The translations under genes were made by a program, and so were the position numbers. Below the pieces are notes generated by a model, which saw only the letters and a list, made by a program, of their open reading frames with translations, had not been told where the DNA came from and ran no database searches. A DNA stretch of 13,820 nucleotides. Source: Candidatus Iainarchaeum sp. Its GTDB lineage: Archaea; Iainarchaeota; Iainarchaeia; Iainarchaeales; CSSED10-239. Every line of letters starts with the position of its first letter. The first letter of the stretch is position 1. Where the stretch lies: contig JAQVRT010000017.1 of NCBI GenBank assembly GCA_028700905.1, positions 1 through 13,820 on the forward strand, written 5' to 3'. Below, piece by piece: positions 1 to 13,159 of the stretch.

Positions 1-806
1 GAGGACAATTAATCTATAATGGAGAAAAGAATAGTTATATAATGTGGGTTGAACAAACCTATATAATGCATCAATCTGAAATTAAAGGAATGGATGTTGA
101 TCCTATAAAAGAAACTAATCCAGAAACTGGTTGTGAAGAAGATGCCTTTGAAATTAGTGTATCTCCAGATACTTCTAATCCTGAAGCTGTTAAAAAATCA
201 GAAAACATGAATAAAGCTTTAGAAAAGGTTGGACCTTTTAAGATGTTTGATACACCAACAAAAACATTTATTTTCTATACAACAGAACCTCCAGAATGTC
301 AAAATAGAATGAAAATTATAGATAAAGAAACAGGACAAGTTATTGATCAAGCAATTGATGAAATAATTACAACTCCTGATGGATTTATTGTAAGAACAGA
401 AGATGGACAAGAACATAATTTTGAATTTAGTGCAGAAGATGGTGTTCCTAAATTAAAGTATAATGATCAAACAGAAACTTTACTTTCAGCACAAGGTAAA
501 AATGGTTCTTTCTGGTATGATCCTAAGACAGGTAATTGGTATACAGAAAACGGTCACTTAATACCATTTGATCCTGAATACAGAGATGGAATGACATTTA
601 AAGTTGGAGAAGATGGTAAAGCTTATGGAACAACAGTTAATAACCTTCTTGGAAATCCAGCAGCAACAGGAGGAAGTGATAGAGGTACTTTAAATCTTCC
701 ATTAACTCCTGAAAAAATACTTCCATTCACTCTTTATATCTTAGTAATAATGGCAAGTTTTATGTACTTGTTTTCATCTAGAAATCAAAAATTTAAGAAA
801 AGGTAA
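1..806 (+). CDS. C-terminal part of a surface/secreted-type protein with a C-terminal TM anchor and basic tail (5'-partial)
   Basis: The frame of the tracked ORF (42..806) stays open back to nt 3 (GQLIYNGEKNSYI-MWVEQ...). No SD sits at a sensible distance before ATG-42, so the gene probably starts upstream of the window. The sequence is acidic and Thr/Pro/Gly-rich. It ends ...LNLPLTPEKI-LPFTLYILVIMASFMYLF-SSRNQKFKKR, i.e. motif, hydrophobic helix, basic tail. No family recognised. Confidence 0.6.
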   Translation, partial: GQLIYNGEKNSYIMWVEQTYIMHQSEIKGMDVDPIKETNPETGCEEDAFEISVSPDTSNPEAVKKSENMNKALEKVGPFKMFDTPTKTFIFYTTEPPECQNRMKIIDKETGQVIDQAIDEIITTPDGFIVRTEDGQEHNFEFSAEDGVPKLKYNDQTETLLSAQGKNGSFWYDPKTGNWYTENGHLIPFDPEYRDGMTFKVGEDGKAYGTTVNNLLGNPAATGGSDRGTLNLPLTPEKILPFTLYILVIMASFMYLFSSRNQKFKKR

Positions 807-1043: not shown

Positions 1044-2552
1044 ATGGCTGAAATAAATGAATATGAACAAAATAGAAAAGCTAATTTTAAAAAATTAATT
1101 GATAATGGTATTGAACCATATCCATATACTTATGATAGAACACATCATTCTATTGATATTTTAGAAAAACATAAAGATTTAAAAGAAGATGAATATACAG
1201 AAGAAAATGCAAGTGTTGCAGGAAGAATATTACTTATTAGAAACTTAGGAAAAATTGCATTTTTAGATCTTCATGATAAAACAGGAAAAATCCAAATTGT
1301 TGTAAAAGAAGCTAATCTTAATGAAAAAGAAAAAATAATTCTTAATGCTTTAGATAGAGGAGACATTATTGGAGTTAAAGGAAAAATATTTAAAACAAAA
1401 AGAGGAGAAATTTCAATTGACTTAGAAAATTTAACTTTTCTTTCAAAAGCTTTTATGCCTCTTCCTGAAAAATATCACGGAATTAAAGATACAGAATTAA
1501 AATATAGAAAAAGATATATTGATTGGATGGTAAATAAAAAATCAAGAGATATATTTATAGTTAGATCAAAAATAATTTCTCTTATGAGAAAGTTTTTAGA
1601 TGAAAAAGGATTTTTAGAAGTTGAAACTCCTCTTTTACAACCATTATATGGTGGAGCAAATGCAAGACCTTTTGTAACTGAAAGTTTTGTATGGAAAAGA
1701 AATCTTTATTTATCAATTTCACCTGAACTTTATTTAAAAAGATTATTGGTTGGGGGATTTGAAAAAGTTTATACTATTTGTAAGAATTTTAGAAATGAAG
1801 GTGTAGATAAATCTCATAATCCTGAATTTACAATGCTTGAACTTTATGAAGCTTATAAAGACTATAACTCAGCTATGGATATTTTAGAAGAAATGCTTGA
1901 ATATGTCACTACAAATATTTTTGGAACAACCAAAATAATTTATGATGGAAATGAGTTTGATTTTAAAAGACCATGGCAAAAAATGACAATGAAAGAAGCT
2001 ATCTTTAAATATGCAAATATAGATATTGATAAATTATCTGATCAAGAAATTAAAGATTTATTAACAAAAGAAAAAATAGAACTTGAAGAATATAAAAGAG
2101 GACTTGCTATTGCAGAAATCTTTGAACATTATTGTGAAGATAAACTATATGGTCCAATACATATAATTGATCATCCAAAAGAGACAACTCCTCTTTGTAA
2201 GTTACATAGAGATGATAAAACATTAATTGAAAGAAACGAACCTTACTTAAATAGTATGGAACTTGCAAATATATACAGTGAACTTAATGATTCCTTTCTT
2301 CAAGAAGAATTAATGATTGAACAAAAAGATCAAGGAAAATCTAAGGGTGAAAATCATCCAATTGATACAGATTTTATAGAATCATTAAAGTTTGGTATGC
2401 CTCCTGCTTATGGTATAGGTATGGGTATTGATAGACTTGTTATTCTTTTAACAAATTCTCAAAATATTAGAGATGTAATATTATTTCCTTTATTAAGAGA
2501 AGAAGAATCTTCTAAAAAGAAAGAGGGAGAAAGTGATAAAGATGGTGCATAA
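1044..2552 (+). CDS. lysS: lysine--tRNA ligase, class II
   Basis: 502 aa. It has an N-terminal OB anticodon-binding region. Class II motif 2 is KNFRNEGVDKSHNPEFTMLELYEAY and motif 3 is GIGMGIDRLVILLT. The LysRS-typical ELANIYSELND...DTDFIESLKFGMPP is present. SD AAGGTGA lies 7 nt upstream of the ATG. Confidence 0.95.
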   Translation: MAEINEYEQNRKANFKKLIDNGIEPYPYTYDRTHHSIDILEKHKDLKEDEYTEENASVAGRILLIRNLGKIAFLDLHDKTGKIQIVVKEANLNEKEKIILNALDRGDIIGVKGKIFKTKRGEISIDLENLTFLSKAFMPLPEKYHGIKDTELKYRKRYIDWMVNKKSRDIFIVRSKIISLMRKFLDEKGFLEVETPLLQPLYGGANARPFVTESFVWKRNLYLSISPELYLKRLLVGGFEKVYTICKNFRNEGVDKSHNPEFTMLELYEAYKDYNSAMDILEEMLEYVTTNIFGTTKIIYDGNEFDFKRPWQKMTMKEAIFKYANIDIDKLSDQEIKDLLTKEKIELEEYKRGLAIAEIFEHYCEDKLYGPIHIIDHPKETTPLCKLHRDDKTLIERNEPYLNSMELANIYSELNDSFLQEELMIEQKDQGKSKGENHPIDTDFIESLKFGMPPAYGIGMGIDRLVILLTNSQNIRDVILFPLLREEESSKKKEGESDKDGA

Positions 2553-5719: not shown

Positions 5720-5755
5720 ATAAAAAAATAAAAAAAATAGTTAAAAAACTATTTT
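5720..5755 (-). terminator. weak AT-rich hairpin overlapping the grx stop, followed by an oligo-T run (- strand)
   Basis: On the - strand the hairpin reads AAAATAGTT-TTTT-AACTATTTT (5755->5734), a 9-bp stem with only one G:C pair. It is followed by TTTTATTTTTTT. The 14-nt direct repeat AAAAAAAATAGTTA occurs at 5707-5720 and 5730-5743 (+ strand). Confidence 0.3.
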
Positions 5756-5979
5756 AAAGCTTGATCAATTGCAGGTTTATTAAACCCAATAATAACTTGA
5801 CCATTAACATCTAAAACAGGAACCCCTTGTTGTCCTGATTTTTGAATCATTTCCATTGCTCTTTCCATGTTTGATCCAACATCAACATCTTCAAATTCAA
5901 TGTTTTTAGATTTTAAATATTCTTTTGCCATAACACAATAAGGACATGACTTTGTAGAATATACAGTTACATTATTCAT
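5749..5979 (-). CDS. glutaredoxin-like / NrdH-like small redoxin
   Basis: CPYC active site in VTVYSTKSCPYCVMAKEYL, and the GVPVL...NG cis-Pro region. The track starts it at a GTG (5988). I prefer ATG at 5979, which is preceded by GGTGA 8 nt upstream and sits 1 nt after the ArsR TAG stop (GGTGAATAGTATG). Confidence 0.85.
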   Translation of the reverse strand: MNNVTVYSTKSCPYCVMAKEYLKSKNIEFEDVDVGSNMERAMEMIQKSGQQGVPVLDVNGQVIIGFNKPAIDQALK

Positions 5980-5980
5980 A

Positions 5981-6250
5981 CTATTCACCTTTTAATTTTT
6001 TAATATCAGATATTATTTTTAATAATAGTTTTTTATTTTTTATTTTTATACACTTAGATTTATTTATTTTTTCAATAGTTATAATTCCTTCTTTTTTAAG
6101 AATTGCTAATTGTCTTGAAATAGTAGAAAGATCTTTACCTGTAAAGGATGCAAGATCTGTACAACAATTATCTTTCTCATTTAAAAGTTTTAGAACTATT
6201 GAATACCTGGTTTCTTCTCCAAGTGCCTTAAAGATTTTATATTCTTCCAT
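5981..6250 (-). CDS. ArsR/SmtB-family winged-helix transcriptional regulator
   Basis: 89 aa. FKALGEETRYSIVLKLL...CCTDLASFTGKDLSTISRQLAILKKEGII is a typical ArsR HTH. A vicinal Cys pair (NCCTDL) sits where ArsR carries ELCVCDL. Confidence 0.85.
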   Translation of the reverse strand: MEEYKIFKALGEETRYSIVLKLLNEKDNCCTDLASFTGKDLSTISRQLAILKKEGIITIEKINKSKCIKIKNKKLLLKIISDIKKLKGE

Positions 6251-6339: not shown

Positions 6340-8169
6340 TTATTCAACAGTAACAGATTTTGCTAAGTTTCTAGGTTTATCAATTTCACATCCTTTAAGG
6401 TCAGAAATAAAATATGCAATAAGTTGCATAATTACAAGATTTAAAAAAGGAGTAAAATCATTATCAATATCTTCAACATAGATTACATAATCTGAAATTT
6501 TTAAAATATCCACATCTCCTTTTGTTGCAATAGATATTACAACTCCACCTCTTGCTTTTACTTCATTAATATTTGATATTACTTTTTCATAATTATTATT
6601 TTTATTAACTATAAAAACACAAGGCATATCTTTATCTATTAAAGCAATAGGACCATGTTTCATTTCTGCTGCAGGATAACCTTCTGCATGGATATAAGAT
6701 ATTTCTTTAAGCTTTAAAGCACCTTCTAAAGCTATAGGGTAGTTTATACCTCTTCCAAGATATAAGAAATTTTTAGAATTTTTAAAATTTAAAGCCATTT
6801 TTTTAATATTATTTACAGAATTATTAATTTCTTCAAAAATAATTTCTGGAAGAGATGAAAGATTTTTAATAATTTTTAATCTATCTTCAATTGAAATTAA
6901 GTTATTCTTTTGTCCAACATATAAAACAAACAACCACATAGATATTAATTGATTTGTAAATGCTTTAGTTGATGCAACACCAATCTCTGGACCTGCTCTA
7001 GTATAGATACCACAACTAACTTCTCTTGCAATAGTTGATCCAACAACATTTACTATTCCTAAAGTTTTTGCATTTTTTTCTTTAGCTTCTCTTAAAGCTG
7101 CAAGAGTATCTGCAGTTTCTCCAGATTGTGAAATTACAATTACCAAAGTATCCTGGTCAACTAAAGGATCTCTATACCTAAATTCAGAAGCATAATCAAC
7201 TTCTACAGGTATTTTTAAATATTTTTCAATAATAAACTTAGAAACCAAAGCACAATGCCAAGAAGTTCCACAAGCAAGAATAACAATTCTTTTTAATTTT
7301 TCTAAATATTCAGAATTAATAAAATCTAATCCTCCAAGAATAACAGAATTTGATTTTAAATCTATTCTTCCAGCTAATGCATTTTTAATAACATCTTTTT
7401 GTTCATAGATTTCTTTTAACATAAAATGTTTATAACCTTGTTTTTCTATTTGATCAAGAGTAACTGATAAAGTATCTATATCTTTATCAATTATTTCATT
7501 ATTAAAATCTGTAATATAATATCCTTGATCATTAATTAATGCAATTTCTCCATCATTTAAATAAATAACATCTTTTGTATACTCAATAATTGCAGAAGTA
7601 TCACTTGCAATAAAATATTCATCCTCTCCAATACCTAAAACAACTGGAGATCCTTTTCTGGCTACAACAATTTCTCTTTTATTTTTAGATAAAACTAATA
7701 TTCCAAAAGTTCCAACAACTTGAGAAATAGCTTTTAAAACAGCTTCCTTTAAATCTCCTTTATAAAAATAAGAAATTAATCCAACTAAAACTTCAGAATC
7801 AGTATCAGATCTAAAAGTAATATTTTTAGTTTGTAAAAATTTTTTTAAACTTTCATAATTTTCAATAATACCATTATGTACTAAAGAAATATTATTTAAA
7901 AAATCAGTATGAGGATGAGAATTAACTTCTGAAGGAATTCCATGTGTTGCCCATCTTGTGTGTGCAATACCAATAGTTGATTCTGTTAAAAGATCTAATT
8001 TTTCTTTTAACTCTAAAACTTTACCTTTTGTTTTTACAGTTATAAGATCATCATTATAAAGAAAAGAAACTCCACAAGAATCATATCCACGATATTCTAA
8101 TCTTAAGAGTCCATTAATTAATATTTGTAAAACTTTTTTTTGCCCTATATATCCAATTATTCCACACAT
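6340..8169 (-). CDS. glmS: glutamine--fructose-6-phosphate aminotransferase (isomerizing)
   Basis: 609 aa. It has the N-terminal nucleophile MCGIIGY, the GATase-2 motif HTRWATHG, two SIS domains (SQSGETADT) and the canonical C-terminus LAKSVTVE. Confidence 0.97.
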   Translation of the reverse strand: MCGIIGYIGQKKVLQILINGLLRLEYRGYDSCGVSFLYNDDLITVKTKGKVLELKEKLDLLTESTIGIAHTRWATHGIPSEVNSHPHTDFLNNISLVHNGIIENYESLKKFLQTKNITFRSDTDSEVLVGLISYFYKGDLKEAVLKAISQVVGTFGILVLSKNKREIVVARKGSPVVLGIGEDEYFIASDTSAIIEYTKDVIYLNDGEIALINDQGYYITDFNNEIIDKDIDTLSVTLDQIEKQGYKHFMLKEIYEQKDVIKNALAGRIDLKSNSVILGGLDFINSEYLEKLKRIVILACGTSWHCALVSKFIIEKYLKIPVEVDYASEFRYRDPLVDQDTLVIVISQSGETADTLAALREAKEKNAKTLGIVNVVGSTIAREVSCGIYTRAGPEIGVASTKAFTNQLISMWLFVLYVGQKNNLISIEDRLKIIKNLSSLPEIIFEEINNSVNNIKKMALNFKNSKNFLYLGRGINYPIALEGALKLKEISYIHAEGYPAAEMKHGPIALIDKDMPCVFIVNKNNNYEKVISNINEVKARGGVVISIATKGDVDILKISDYVIYVEDIDNDFTPFLNLVIMQLIAYFISDLKGCEIDKPRNLAKSVTVE

Positions 8170-8888: not shown

Positions 8889-9962
8889 TTAACCACATGT
8901 TGCGTCTGTTGTTGATGTTGTTGTTTGACTAAAACCAAATCCAGGAGTAGGAGAAGCTGAACTTAAAACTTCATTACATGCTCTTGGTAATGTTTCAAAT
9001 CCACTACAAATTGTATTTAAAAGACTTTGAGAATCTCTATTTGAATTTACAACAGTCCCATTAATTACAAGTGTTGGTGAACCTTGAACTCCATATTTTA
9101 AATTATCAGCATCATGTACTAAAAACTTAGGATATCTTCCATTAAGCCATGAAGCTTTATCTTCATAAGATTCCATAACATTAAATTCTTGATCAGTTTC
9201 TGTAATACATGTATCTAAAGAATCTCTTGTGATTTGTGTTTCTTCAAGACATCTATCTGTATTTCCATCTTCTAAGAAACAATAAAGATAGTCATTAAAT
9301 TTGTCATTAAATTCTTCTTGAATACAATATTGAAGTAATTGTTCTTCAACTTCAACAATATCATGCATAGCATAATTTACAAACTTAATTTTAAAATCAA
9401 TTGTGTCTTGTAAAACATCAACTGCAGGTAAAATTCCTTTTTCAACTTGAGTTCCATAAGGACAGTGAGACATTACAAACAATTCTACTGTTGGTTTTTC
9501 AGTCTTTGGAATTTCTTGAACTTCAGGAGTTGTATTCTCTCCTTCTGCTAAATTCAGGTCAGATTTATTAATTGGTTCTAAACCAGGAACGAAAACCATT
9601 TCTCCATCTAAAGAAGTATATATTTCTACTTCTTGTCCTTCAATTTCAAAAGTATTAAGGCATAAGCCATTAGAAGATACTGTTGAAATTAAACTTAAAG
9701 AAGGTAATTGAAATGTATCAATTAAGAAAGTTTGTGTGTCTGGTCCAATATTTGTTGCACATTCTAAAGCAACTTCTGGATCAACTTCATTGTTATTGCC
9801 AGTTAATGCAAAAATACCTACTACAATTAATAAAACTAAAAGAACAAAAGAAGTTATTTGCCAAAAATGATCTTTCATTTTACAAGTTTTATGTTTAGAA
9901 GAACTTACATTGTGATGTTCTTCTTTATGTGTAGGTGTGTTTTTTTTAATTGTTTTTTTCAT
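8889..9962 (-). CDS. membrane-anchored thioredoxin-fold (DsbA-like) protein, Cys-rich
   Basis: 357 aa. It has a basic N-terminus and one TM (ITSFVLLVLLIVVGIFAL). The Trx-like motif is FVMSHCPYG and the cis-Pro loop is GSPTLVINGT. Eleven further Cys are present, 8 of them in the C-terminal half. GGTGG SD lies 6 nt upstream. Confidence 0.65.
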   Translation of the reverse strand: MKKTIKKNTPTHKEEHHNVSSSKHKTCKMKDHFWQITSFVLLVLLIVVGIFALTGNNNEVDPEVALECATNIGPDTQTFLIDTFQLPSLSLISTVSSNGLCLNTFEIEGQEVEIYTSLDGEMVFVPGLEPINKSDLNLAEGENTTPEVQEIPKTEKPTVELFVMSHCPYGTQVEKGILPAVDVLQDTIDFKIKFVNYAMHDIVEVEEQLLQYCIQEEFNDKFNDYLYCFLEDGNTDRCLEETQITRDSLDTCITETDQEFNVMESYEDKASWLNGRYPKFLVHDADNLKYGVQGSPTLVINGTVVNSNRDSQSLLNTICSGFETLPRACNEVLSSASPTPGFGFSQTTTSTTDATCG

Positions 9963-10009
9963 ATCATACCACCATATTTTTAATAATAATTTATATATAA
10001 TATTATAAT

Positions 10010-10024
10010 AGAAATGTTTATAAA
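10010..10024 (-). promoter_or_regulatory. second copy of the TTTATAAACATTTCT promoter-like element, upstream of the Trx-fold gene
   Basis: This is an exact 15-nt match to 6296-6310 on the same strand, 47 nt upstream of the ATG at 9962. Confidence 0.3.
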
Positions 10025-10090
10025 AAGAAAGAAAAATTATATTCTAAAAATTTATTTTCAGAAAATAATTTTTAAAAAAAATAAAGAAAT

Positions 10091-10483
10091 TTATAAAGAA
10101 TAAACTTCTTTATAAATTCCATGAATATTACATAAAGCCCTAATTGTAACTTTTCTTCCTAAAGGAACTTTAAAAACAACTTCTGGTTTATCCCAATAAT
10201 TAAGACTCTTAACATATAAAGACCCATCAACAGAAATTTCAATCCATTTAATGAAATGTTCTTGTGTCATTGGATGCATAGGCTCTCCAATCTTAACATA
10301 TATTTCTTTTTCGCCTCTAATTTCTATATAAGGTTTATGAATATCTTCATTTGATGTAACTTTTTCTTCTTTAATTTCAAGATCCATTTCTTTACCACAA
10401 CAAACTAAAGTTCCACCACCAATTTCTTTTAGTTCTACAACATTTCCACAAACTGAACATTTATATTTATCTCCAACTTCCAT
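10091..10483 (-). CDS. dfx: desulfoferrodoxin (2Fe superoxide reductase)
   Basis: 130 aa. The N-terminal desulforedoxin-type centre is CSVC...VCCG. The neelaredoxin-type domain has HKPYIE, HPM..EHFI and the C-terminal CNIHG ligands. AGGAG SD is present. Confidence 0.9.
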   Translation of the reverse strand: MEVGDKYKCSVCGNVVELKEIGGGTLVCCGKEMDLEIKEEKVTSNEDIHKPYIEIRGEKEIYVKIGEPMHPMTQEHFIKWIEISVDGSLYVKSLNYWDKPEVVFKVPLGRKVTIRALCNIHGIYKEVYSL

Positions 10484-10632
10484 AATTTATTTCTCCTATA
10501 ACTATCTTCTTTTTATCAAGTATATTATATAGAATAATTAATAAATATATGGATTATTTATTAAAAAAAGTAATTTTGTTTAAAATATTATTATAGTATA
10601 TTTTAAAGTTAAATGTTTAGTTTTTTATTAAA

Positions 10633-10657
10633 TAAAAAAAAATAGAAAAGAAAAAAT
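10633..10657 (-). terminator. oligo-T tracts immediately downstream of the repeat-protein stop
   Basis: The - strand reads ATATTTTTTCTTTTCTATTTTTTTTTATT right after the TAA, with no convincing hairpin. This is an archaeal-style T-tract termination signal and is inferred only. Confidence 0.25.
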
Positions 10658-10659
10658 AT

Positions 10660-13056
10660 TTAAATATTTTCTCTAATTTTTGATTTAGAAAAACCAGCTT
10701 CTAAAAGATCTTCTTCTGAATAACCAGCAAGTCTAAGCTCTTCTAAACTATAACCTACACTTCTAAGTTCTTTTGCAGAAAAATGTAATGCTCTAAGTTC
10801 TTTTGCACCATAATGAATAACTTTCATAAGTCTGATACCAACACCTAAATCAAAAACATCTTTTGCAGAATAACCAGCATAATGAAGTTGTCTTGCAGTA
10901 TATCCTACATCATAAAGATCTTTTGCAGAAAAACCACCTTCTTTCATTGAAGATGCATCACAACCTGCCATCTTTAAATCTCTTGCAGAATAAAATGGAT
11001 TTAAATCTTTTGGAGAATATCCAGCTTGAGTCATTTCTTTTGCAGTATATCCTGCATTATAAAATTCAGAAATTGGTATACCTAAACCATAAATTTCTTT
11101 TGCTTTATAACCTGCAAATCTAATAGTTGAAACATCAAAACCAGAATCATACATTTCTTTTGCAGTATATCCTGCAGCATGATATTGTTTTGCAGTATAT
11201 CCTATACTTAAAAGTTCTTTAGCAGTAAATCCTGATCTTCTAAGTTCAAGTAAAGAAAAGCCTTCTAAATGAAGTTCTAAAGCAGTAAATCCTGCAAGTC
11301 TTAAGTCAATTAAATTATAACCATTTGCAAGGAAATCTTTTATTGTACATCCAAGCATATGAACTTCTCTTAAAGAATAACCACCTTCAAGTAAATCAAA
11401 ACATGTACATCCAGCATTCTTTAAATCAATTGCTTTGTATCCAGCTTCTTTTAAATCTTTAATAGTATAACCTAATTTTAAAAGTTCAGGTATACTGTAC
11501 TTTAAATATTTAAGTTCTTCTAAAGATACAACTTTATCATCTGAAAGAACAACAGGTTCAACAGGTTTTAAAGCAATTAACTCTGAAATATCAAATCCTG
11601 CTTCTTTAAGTTCATCAATTGTAATTCCATTTTCATATAATGGTTTTGCAGAAATTCCTTCTTTTCTAAATCTTACAAGAGGAATCTCTTTTAGAAGTTC
11701 TTTATAAGTAAAACCAATATCTAAAAGTTCTTTAATTGTAAATTTTTCTGCAACAATTTCTTCTAAAGAATAAACATCTTTAATTTCTTTTAAAGTATAT
11801 CCTTTTTTTAGTAATTGTTTTAATGTAAATATTTTTGAAAGATCTTTAATTGTAAAACCACAATCTAATATTTCTTTAAGTTTATAACCAGCAGAAACAA
11901 TTTCTTTTAAAGAATAACCAGCTTTTTTAAGATCTTTTGCAGGATATGCATATTCTTTTAATTTTTTAGCTCTAAATTTTGCATCTCTTAAATCTTTTGC
12001 ATCATATTCTGCAAAAAGAATTGAATGTTGATCAAATTTAACTTTCTTTAAATCACTTGGAGTATATCCAAGAGCTTTAAGATCTTTTGTTGAAATTCCT
12101 GCTTTCTTTAATTCTTTTAAAGAAAAATTTACATCATTAATTTCCTTAGGAGTATATTGTAGATAATAAAGATCTTTTGCAGTGAAGCCAAGTGACTTTA
12201 GTGCTTTTGCATTATATTTATGTTCTTTTAAAACACTAGCTGTTAAGCCATATGAAAATATTTCTTTTGAAGACATTTTCTTTAAAGTTTGATCATTGAT
12301 AACTATTTTTACAACTTCTTCTTTTTTATCTTCAACTTTTTCTTTTTTAATTTTTTTAGGTTTTGCTTTTTCTTTTGGAAATTTTTTTAAAGGTTTTATT
12401 TTTTCTTCTTTTATTTTAATTCCAATTTCTTTATCTGTAAAACCTGCTTTTCTTAATTCATCAATACTATATTTTGCTTTCTTAAGTTCTGAAATAGTAT
12501 ATGTACCTTGATATAATTCTTTTGCAGTTAAACCAATATTTTTTAATTGTGATGCATCAAAACCTGCTCTCTTTAAATCTTTAATACTAAAACCTACTTC
12601 TAATAATTGTCTTGCAGTAAATTTAACTTTTTTTAATTCTTTTGAAGTATAACCTACAGATTTTAAATCTTTTAAATTAATACCAAGTTCTTTTAAATCT
12701 TTTAAAGGAAAACCTGCTACTTGTAAATCTTTAACAGAATAACCTACAGAATAAAGTTCTTTTGCAGTAAAATCTAAATTTCTTAAATTTTGAGAACTAA
12801 AACCAACTTCTTTTAATTTCTTAACAGTAAATCCTGCTTTTTCTAAAGTTCTAGCTTTAAAGCCTAATCCCTTTAAAACAGTATAGTTTGCTTTAACTTC
12901 ATTTAGTTTTTTTGCAAATTCTGTTTTATTTATTTTAAATTTTGAAAAAATAGAAACTGTTATTGGAGAAATTATATATCTTGAAGGAGAATTGATTTGT
13001 TTTTCTAAATATTCATTTAATTCTTTTTTTGTTAAATTTTTTAAGTCAATAGCCAT
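10660..13056 (-). CDS. large tandem decapeptide-repeat protein, function unknown
   Basis: The ORF is 798 aa and uninterrupted. A strong SD is present (AGGTGGTG, 8 nt upstream). About 65-70 units have the consensus h-G-[FY]-[ST]-x-[KS]-[DE]-L-x-x. No signal peptide or TM is visible. Confidence 0.85.
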   Translation of the reverse strand: MAIDLKNLTKKELNEYLEKQINSPSRYIISPITVSIFSKFKINKTEFAKKLNEVKANYTVLKGLGFKARTLEKAGFTVKKLKEVGFSSQNLRNLDFTAKELYSVGYSVKDLQVAGFPLKDLKELGINLKDLKSVGYTSKELKKVKFTARQLLEVGFSIKDLKRAGFDASQLKNIGLTAKELYQGTYTISELKKAKYSIDELRKAGFTDKEIGIKIKEEKIKPLKKFPKEKAKPKKIKKEKVEDKKEEVVKIVINDQTLKKMSSKEIFSYGLTASVLKEHKYNAKALKSLGFTAKDLYYLQYTPKEINDVNFSLKELKKAGISTKDLKALGYTPSDLKKVKFDQHSILFAEYDAKDLRDAKFRAKKLKEYAYPAKDLKKAGYSLKEIVSAGYKLKEILDCGFTIKDLSKIFTLKQLLKKGYTLKEIKDVYSLEEIVAEKFTIKELLDIGFTYKELLKEIPLVRFRKEGISAKPLYENGITIDELKEAGFDISELIALKPVEPVVLSDDKVVSLEELKYLKYSIPELLKLGYTIKDLKEAGYKAIDLKNAGCTCFDLLEGGYSLREVHMLGCTIKDFLANGYNLIDLRLAGFTALELHLEGFSLLELRRSGFTAKELLSIGYTAKQYHAAGYTAKEMYDSGFDVSTIRFAGYKAKEIYGLGIPISEFYNAGYTAKEMTQAGYSPKDLNPFYSARDLKMAGCDASSMKEGGFSAKDLYDVGYTARQLHYAGYSAKDVFDLGVGIRLMKVIHYGAKELRALHFSAKELRSVGYSLEELRLAGYSEEDLLEAGFSKSKIRENI
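10672..11526 (-). repeat. decapeptide array 3 (aa ~511-795), the most DNA-homogeneous array
   Basis: G-[FYCI] occurs at residues x9-x0 sixteen times in a row (aa 529-680). AGYTAKEM recurs. Exact 25-nt DNA repeats occur at 11032-11056 and 11152-11176. Confidence 0.85.
11569..12255 (-). repeat. decapeptide array 2 (aa ~268-496), more degenerate with a few 9-residue units
   Basis: Example units are LGFTAKDLYY, AGISTKDLKA, AGYSLKEIVS, AGYKLKEILD and CGFTIKDLSK. The phase slips by one residue near aa 408-440. Confidence 0.8.
12421..12891 (-). repeat. decapeptide array 1 (aa ~56-212), 30-nt coding periodicity
   Basis: Leu/Ile occurs at every 10th residue from aa 61 to 211 with no indel. Example units are LGFKARTLEK, AGFTVKKLKE and VGFSSQNLRN. 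Confidence 0.85.
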
Positions 13057-13159
13057 TTTAATACACCACCTAAAATATAATTATATTTAGTTAAATAATT
13101 ATAGATAAGTTAAGTTTATATACTTGTTTATTTAATTATGTATATGTGTGACATACTAA

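Follow-up and report, generated by a model that had tools for sequence, protein, structure and literature searches.

We analyzed a 13,820-nucleotide stretch of archaeal DNA, hereafter the window, that spans positions 1 to 13,820 of contig JAQVRT010000017.1 (metagenome-assembled genome GCA_028700905.1) from Candidatus Iainarchaeum, a DPANN genus of the phylum Iainarchaeota. The window contains, on its minus strand, a complete open reading frame (ORF) that begins with ATG at 13056, ends at 10660 (10660..13056, stop codon included) and encodes a stand-alone decapeptide-repeat protein of 798 amino acids (aa). Reading the flanking sequence directly, we found a Shine-Dalgarno-like element, AGGTGGTG, 8 nucleotides upstream of the ATG (13064..13071, minus strand), in agreement with the strong Shine-Dalgarno signal of the original prediction, an annotation made from the letters of the window and a list of its ORFs. 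Oligo-T runs lie directly 3' of the stop codon (10622..10657, minus strand). These runs are likely an archaeal-type terminator, in which case the gene would be its own transcription unit, and the two flanking signals taken together make it appear to be one. The GC content and third-position GC content (GC3) of the gene are those of the neighboring genes, in a window of ~25% GC. As had also been predicted, we found neither a signal-peptide-like N-terminus nor a transmembrane segment in the 798-aa protein, the highest 19-residue Kyte-Doolittle mean being 1.08 (aa 486-504).

The periodicity of the protein is visible when its sequence is written in rows of ten. Identity autocorrelation against 500 shuffles bore out the strict, in-phase 10-residue repeat that had been proposed (lag 10, z = 20.1; lag 20, z = 16.3; lag 30, z = 12.1; lag 40, z = 14.4), and at all lags other than multiples of 10 the signal stayed at |z| < 4 (lag 5, z = -1.2). 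Sixty clean units give the consensus G-[YF]-[TS]-[ALI]-K-[ED]-L-[KR]-x-[AVL], in which the acidic residues at position 6 are conserved as strongly as the lysines. Two more specific claims were reproduced exactly: between aa 61 and 211 each 10th residue is leucine or isoleucine (16 of 16), and between aa 529 and 680 G-[YFCI] recurs 16 times in succession. The earlier estimate of ~65-70 units likewise agrees with the 68 short helices that DSSP assigns after aa 57 in the AlphaFold2 model described below.

Three arrays, separated by a Lys/Glu/Pro-rich spacer and a short linker as originally described (seen at aa 212-260 and ~495-511), follow an N-terminal non-repeat region; all of the coordinates given here for them are on the minus strand. 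The N-terminal region (aa 1-57; 12886..13056) has no Pfam match and is predicted to form three helices (H10-22, H31-39 and H44-54) with a predicted local distance difference test score (pLDDT) of 54-74, that is, with low to moderate confidence. Array 1 (aa 58-212; 12421..12885) consists of 16 in-phase units with a pLDDT of 85-98. The spacer (aa 212-260; 12277..12423) is predicted to be disordered, with pLDDT < 50 at aa 215-250, and its DNA is a 30-33-nucleotide tandem repeat (Tandem Repeats Finder [TRF] rows at 12322-12407). Array 2 (aa 255-495; 11572..12294) has ~25 units, and in its last part, aa 403-495, the period slips several times to 9 or 11 residues. After a short linker that is predicted to be disordered (aa 496-511; 11524..11571; pLDDT < 50 at aa 497-508), array 3 (aa 512-798; 10663..11523) has ~27 units, among them 16 consecutive ones in which the glycine is invariant, and two irregular longer helices at aa 687-696 and 731-740.

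These regions differ in composition. The protein as a whole carries a net charge of +33 (15% lysine; isoelectric point [pI] 9.3), made up of +5 in the N-terminal region, +12 in array 1, +10 in the spacer, +11 in array 2, and -2 and -1 in the two parts of array 3, which is net neutral. Arrays 1 and 2 carry lysine at unit positions 5 and 8, and array 3 is richer in aromatic residues and histidine at position 8, having His, Tyr or Leu there instead of Lys. This pattern suggests that the segmented rod bears two different surfaces, Lys/Glu ladders on arrays 1 and 2 versus a His/Tyr/Leu-rich face on array 3.

Profile and sequence searches placed the repeat in a catalogued family. The protein matched Pfam PF25296, "Decapeptide repeat region", with 596.1 bits against a cutoff of 45 (E = 9.8e-184; 13 stretches). 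In a phmmer search of the Protein Data Bank (PDB), the sole real match was Legionella pneumophila IcmE/DotG (entries 7muc and 9ngw; E = 2e-91; DotG residues ~150-733), and when one array alone was searched against PDB sequences, only DotG and some marginal designed proteins came up. A 10-aa repeat with the logo [KR]-x-A-G-[FY]-[STND]-x-x-x-[LI] has been described in DotG (bioRxiv 10.1101/2023.03.22.533729; PMC13244404), and the 798-aa protein matches both this published motif and the strict 10-residue period. Judged by its sequence, the protein is a stand-alone member of family PF25296. The PF25296 and DotG/IcmE matches refute the original prediction that the repeat belongs to no known family, and they are the kind of finding that the prediction itself had named as contrary evidence. 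A literature search on the decapeptide repeat and PF25296 returned only unrelated repeats (KAHRP, keratin-associated proteins and p180).

Relatives of the PF25296 type are abundant. A search of a clustered protein collection returned at least 2268 cluster representatives (50% identity) at E <= 1e-3, 296 of them at E <= 1e-30; the closest are at most ~44% identical to the 798-aa protein. Among these relatives, none had a best-matched stretch that starts before query aa 33 and none had the three-array layout. Where prokaryotic relatives are named, they belong to Legionellales and other Pseudomonadota; many other relatives look eukaryotic, and we found no other archaeal member among these matches, most of which carry no taxonomy. 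Elsewhere, decapeptide arrays are combined with a transmembrane helix and a VirB10/TrbI domain (as in DotG), an EF-hand, a U-box, an ion channel, or a Ser/Thr kinase encoded next to a PP2C phosphatase. Giant array proteins of 3-4 thousand residues occur, one of them (P0128) with RCC1, Big_2 and FN3 domains, and repeat-only relatives also exist (P0245, P0256, P0237 and P0154). The kinase case (P0041; GCA_016648615.1, 24.6-kb contig) is a prokaryotic Ser/Thr kinase fused to a long decapeptide array, whose neighbors encode a PP2C phosphatase, an SLFN-like helicase, an SRA/ScoMcrA-like protein and a SocA_Panacea antitoxin, a setting that resembles a defense island. The arrays are also matched, at E = 3e-24 to 2e-10, by three phage protein families with no assigned function (PHROG 15350, 12514 and 30240), which places decapeptide-like repeats in phage proteins too.

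The match to DotG does not extend to its identity. The NCBIfam DotG equivalog model (NF033900) scored 556 bits, below its cutoff of 750, over seven stretches, the best of which falls within the repeat part of the profile (positions 162-363); the score comes from the repeats only. The C-terminal TrbI/VirB10 domain (PF03743), present in DotG-type relatives, gave no match in the 798-aa protein even at E <= 10, and the protein has no N-terminal inner-membrane transmembrane helix of the DotG type. Neither dot/icm genes nor other type IV secretion system (T4SS) genes were found in the window or in the 20-kb loci of related strains. We rejected identity as DotG on these four counts.

The gene is real and conserved, and its maintenance is under purifying selection. 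Seven further assemblies, made from ENA, Logan and JGI samples, carry the gene at the same length of 798 aa, and their copies differ from that of the window by 0-3 aa and 1-17 nucleotides; one copy (L001) has 10 nucleotide differences and 0 aa differences. At the syntenic site of a more distant strain (L091; JGI 3300008002, 663-kb contig), we found an 808-aa orthologue with 96.6% identity over the aligned residues (771/798), in which array units are matched one-for-one and a single indel occurs, a 10-aa unit inserted into the Lys/Glu/Pro spacer after aa 234. The ratio of nonsynonymous to synonymous substitution rates (dN/dS) is 0.22 overall, 0.05-0.08 in the N-terminus and array 1, and 0.34 in aa 261-460; the per-region values cover aa 1-460, and aa 461-510 have no synonymous differences. 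Between strains, then, the spacer varies by one 10-aa unit, and the decapeptide arrays are constant in unit number. Large protein searches returned neither the protein itself nor its orthologue because these sequences are absent from the underlying collection: an exact look-up of the 798- and 808-aa proteins of the window and of four related contigs (L082, L083, L087 and L091) in the 15-billion-protein clustered collection was negative, though the contigs are indexed.

We predicted the structure with AlphaFold2, using for the full-length run an alignment with 44 relatives. The full-length model has a mean pLDDT of 84, mostly > 90 in the arrays, and a whole-chain predicted template modeling score (pTM) of 0.38. 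Each unit in it consists of a 6-residue helix (unit positions 4-9) and a 4-residue turn (x-G-[FY]-[ST]). Apart from the spacer and the linker, the residues predicted to be disordered are aa 741-744. As pLDDT falls below 50 in the linkers and pTM for the whole protein is 0.38, the rods would be flexibly joined and independently oriented. A second model, of a 15-unit segment of array 3 (aa 529-678), was built from an in-register alignment of this segment with 30 other arrays in blocks that we assembled ourselves; it shows the same helix-turn pattern with pLDDT 96.7 and pTM 0.84. No strand was present in the predicted secondary structure of either model. The "short helix + Gly-aromatic turn" solenoid, one of two folds put forward in the original prediction, is thus what AlphaFold2 predicts, with very high confidence. 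In Foldseek, the full model reached a template modeling (TM) score of at most 0.11, and the array model had no match at E <= 1e-3, its best TM scores being 0.24 in the PDB and 0.32 among the viral structures of BFVD. The predicted fold would therefore be one without a solved counterpart. We know of no helical repeat unit as short as 10 residues.

The predicted unit can be read in terms of established helix-capping rules, which comprise a capping box (S/T-x-x-E), a hydrophobic staple between N' and N4, and a C-terminal glycine. Each unit would be a self-capped mini-helix with an aromatic residue at N', Ser or Thr as N-cap, Glu or Asp at N3, Leu at N4 and Gly at C'. The acidic residue at N3 would complete the capping box, the leucine and the aromatic residue would form the hydrophobic staple, and the glycine would end the helix. 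Tandem units may then pack on one another via unit positions 2, 4, 7 and 10, which would give an uninterrupted all-alpha solenoid. In the protein as a whole, a small N-terminal helical segment would precede three rods of ~16, 25 and 27 units, joined by the Lys/Glu/Pro spacer (~36 disordered residues) and a linker of ~12 residues. We propose, with a probability of roughly 0.6, that the protein is a soluble, segmented mini-helix solenoid made of three rigid rods and disordered linkers; the rod geometry is an inference.

The 798-aa protein is most likely cytoplasmic because it has neither a signal peptide nor a transmembrane helix. The DotG repeat region may form a periplasmic "collar" or cage (bioRxiv 10.1101/2023.03.22.533729; PMC13244404). 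This proposed envelope-spanning place, together with the diversity of fusion partners, suggests that the decapeptide array is a generic structural or interaction module. We think, with less confidence than we attach to the fold, that the archaeal protein would act as a long segmented scaffold, a spacer or a multivalent binding surface.

Several points weigh against this proposal. The fold comes from AlphaFold2 alone, repeat proteins can receive inflated confidence, and the array alignment was our own construction. The authors of the DotG studies call their own AlphaFold prediction of the repeat region low in confidence, and the region is unresolved in every cryo-electron microscopy map (bioRxiv 10.1101/2023.03.22.533729; PMC13244404). 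No function has been defined by experiment for any decapeptide array, and the neighboring genes, among them those for an esterase, a superoxide reductase and GlmS, do not link the archaeal gene to any function. Finally, a cytoplasmic location is a default assumption, and non-classical export in DPANN cells is possible.

A bolder version of the solenoid proposal, which we regard as conceivable and on balance doubtful, is that the decapeptide array constitutes a distinct fold, with one 6-residue capped helix per 10 residues, of which the 798-aa protein is the first archaeal representative, perhaps with a lineage-specific role in DPANN cells such as that of a cytoskeletal or tethering rod.

We considered whether the protein could instead be a non-specific binder of nucleic acids or other polyanions, such as a nucleoid or RNA scaffold, in which each glycine turn and helix N-terminus would supply one of a series of phosphate-binding sites like those of helix-hairpin-helix (HhH) motifs. 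The charge for such a role would come from arrays 1 and 2 and the Lys-rich spacer, as the net +33 is concentrated in the N-terminal region, array 1, spacer and array 2; however, the lysine content and pI are typical of this AT-rich proteome (the DHH phosphoesterase encoded in the window has 15.4% lysine and pI 9.6, and the malic enzyme pI 9.2), and acidic residues at unit position 6 are conserved to the same degree as the lysines. Segments of the protein also bear a sub-threshold likeness to eL13, SAM_SMF/DprA, MerR, RuvA_C and Raf1_HTH, and some decapeptide proteins carry the JGI label "ribosomal protein L13E". These matches are scattered: RuvA_C scored E = 8.5, SAM_SMF and Raf1_HTH had no passing stretch, and MerR_1 had one stretch of 27 residues. 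Across L13e, SAM_SMF, MerR_1, Raf1_HTH, RuvA_C and Acetyltransf_11, the matches either lack a significant stretch or span 1-2 units, and the same set recurs on bona fide periplasmic DotG proteins; they therefore reflect a shared helix-start motif, G-[FY]-S-x-x-E-L, rather than homology or function. Furthermore, Foldseek showed no HhH, helix-turn-helix (HTH) or other DNA-binding fold. The suggestion of nucleic-acid binding that the original prediction drew from HhH-like elements and lysine richness is thus unsupported, and we consider polyanion binding unlikely.

Alternatively, the protein could be what remains of a DotG-like secretion or attachment component that spans the envelope, or an analogue of one, exported as a collar or tether that links the DPANN cell to a host cell. 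DPANN archaea are generally considered dependent on contact with other cells, DotG is the sole studied carrier of the repeat and the one for which an envelope collar or cage has been proposed, and the 556 bits of the NCBIfam DotG model could be counted in favor of this explanation. That score, however, is below the cutoff and due to the repeats only, the protein lacks the TrbI/VirB10 domain, a transmembrane helix and a signal peptide, and no T4SS or other secretion genes lie within ~10 kb in any strain. A secretion or tethering component descended from or resembling DotG is quite unlikely on this evidence.

We find it very unlikely that the protein is a divergent pentapeptide-repeat protein folded as a right-handed quadrilateral beta-helix (RFR), with two pentads per decapeptide, perhaps acting as a DNA mimic in the manner of Qnr or MfpA. 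This idea draws on a marginal match to PF13599 (Pentapeptide_4; 38.6 bits against a cutoff of 38, aa 58-112 only), on weak NCBIfam matches to QnrS, HetL and Qnr that fall well short of their cutoffs (E = 2e-5 to 2e-3), on the designed beta-solenoids 4yc5 and 4yfo (E ~0.05), and on the historical annotation of the DotG repeats as pentapeptide repeats. In contrast, PF00805 gave no match, the autocorrelation has no lag-5 signal (z = -1.2), lysine would occupy the inward-facing i-2 position in every second pentad, and the AlphaFold2 array model contains no strand at a pLDDT of 97. A positive net charge of 33 is the opposite of what a DNA mimic would carry. For DotG itself, the repeat motif is reported to depart from that of pentapeptide repeats, and its AlphaFold model to be something other than a beta-helix (bioRxiv 10.1101/2023.03.22.533729; PMC13244404). 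The earlier judgment that this is not a canonical pentapeptide repeat therefore stands.

The chance that the ORF is spurious, either a short repeat expanded by an assembler or a non-coding AT-rich stretch open by chance, is negligible: beyond the general risk with repeats and the absence of the exact protein from the clustered collection, nothing speaks for it, and we rejected an assembly artefact, which the original prediction had named as contrary evidence, because TRF finds in the gene only 2-3-copy 30-nucleotide arrays with 65-81% matches, too short and too diverged to have been inflated from a short exact repeat, because eight assemblies agree in length, because synonymous changes dominate, and in view of the strong Shine-Dalgarno element and the Pfam match of 596 bits.

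The genes around the repeat gene have housekeeping and redox roles and encode a carboxylesterase, a desulfoferrodoxin/superoxide reductase, a thioredoxin-like membrane protein, a CAAX protease, GlmS, an ArsR protein, a glutaredoxin, a malic enzyme, a SpoU methylase, a DHH phosphoesterase and a class II lysyl-tRNA synthetase (LysRS), and gene order around the repeat gene is conserved in a related strain. We found no secretion-system, mobile-element or defense genes near the repeat gene, PADLOC gave no match, and tRNA and Rfam scans of the window found nothing. A redox-related run (desulfoferrodoxin/superoxide reductase, thioredoxin-like membrane protein, glutaredoxin and ArsR) flanks the repeat gene on the minus strand (5749-6250 and 8889-10483); its thioredoxin-like protein has 357 aa in the window versus 329 or 399 aa in other strains.

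Three other features of the window were recorded. The glmS gene (6340-8169, minus strand) was compared with GTDB species genomes, and the best matches of its product were in bacteria of the candidate phyla radiation (CPR; Parcubacteria/Patescibacteria, 56%) and one metagenome-assembled genome labeled Gammaproteobacteria (57%), ahead of DPANN/Nanoarchaeota (54%), which hints at inter-domain transfer or at shared ancestry among ultra-small lineages. No close relative was found in the GTDB genomes in this way, and a tblastn search of the 80 loci so retrieved with the decapeptide protein was negative. The lysyl-tRNA synthetase (1044-2552, plus strand) is of class II (PF00152); most archaea use a class I LysRS. 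Lastly, gene calls in two related contigs (L083 and L091) indicate that ORF 42-806 (window 1-806, plus strand) is the C-terminal end of a larger protein. The full protein has 1629 aa and no Pfam match, and its end, a hydrophobic segment and a KFKKR tail, suggests a surface protein anchored at the C-terminus.

As the repeat family is already in Pfam, the 798-aa protein is not a new kind of protein. What is new is a stand-alone, archaeal, three-array member of a known repeat family. Its existence indicates that the repeat is tied neither to type IV secretion nor to bacteria and protists or other eukaryotes, and that it is kept in a reduced DPANN genome.

Among known systems, alpha-solenoids (designed helical repeats, HEAT, TPR and ankyrin) share with the predicted structure the principle of stacked helices in an elongated scaffold, and they were the only Foldseek neighbors, very weak ones. 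Their units have 30-45 residues in two or three long helices, whereas the decapeptide unit has 10 residues and one 6-residue helix. Pentapeptide-repeat proteins (Qnr, MfpA and HetL) are also built from tandem short repeats, and every second pentad of the decapeptide arrays, A-G-[FY]-[ST]-x, resembles their A-[DN]-[LF]-[ST]-x; the other pentad, however, is incompatible with an RFR core, and the period of 5, beta structure and acidic character of those proteins contrast with the period of 10, predicted all-alpha structure and basic character of the 798-aa protein. The middle repeat of CagY, the VirB10 homologue of the Helicobacter Cag T4SS, offers no more than an analogy: this long repeat region is likewise a proposed collar, and its repeat number varies by recombination, but its sequence is unrelated and we detected no similarity to the 798-aa protein.

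The closest comparison is with DotG/IcmE, the VirB10 homologue of the type IVB Dot/Icm systems of Legionella and Coxiella, which uses the same 10-residue unit in arrays 28-34% identical to those described here and whose repeat copy number varies among Legionella species. Both proteins match PF25296, and the arrays of both are long, in phase and known without an atomic structure. DotG has an N-terminal transmembrane helix, a C-terminal TrbI/VirB10 dome domain and a place in a T4SS operon, none of which belongs to the 798-aa protein, which in contrast is archaeal, apparently soluble and divided into three arrays by disordered linkers. The DotG units are Ala-rich (AGFSAKELKD), and those of the archaeal protein are richer in Lys, Ile and Tyr. 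Of the parts of DotG that are still unresolved in the Dot/Icm machine, the decapeptide region, the proposed collar, is the largest. A soluble all-repeat protein predicted at a pLDDT of ~97 would be a convenient and tractable surrogate for the DotG repeat fold, and because its unit reads as a textbook self-capping mini-helix, the fold hypothesis should be easy to test.

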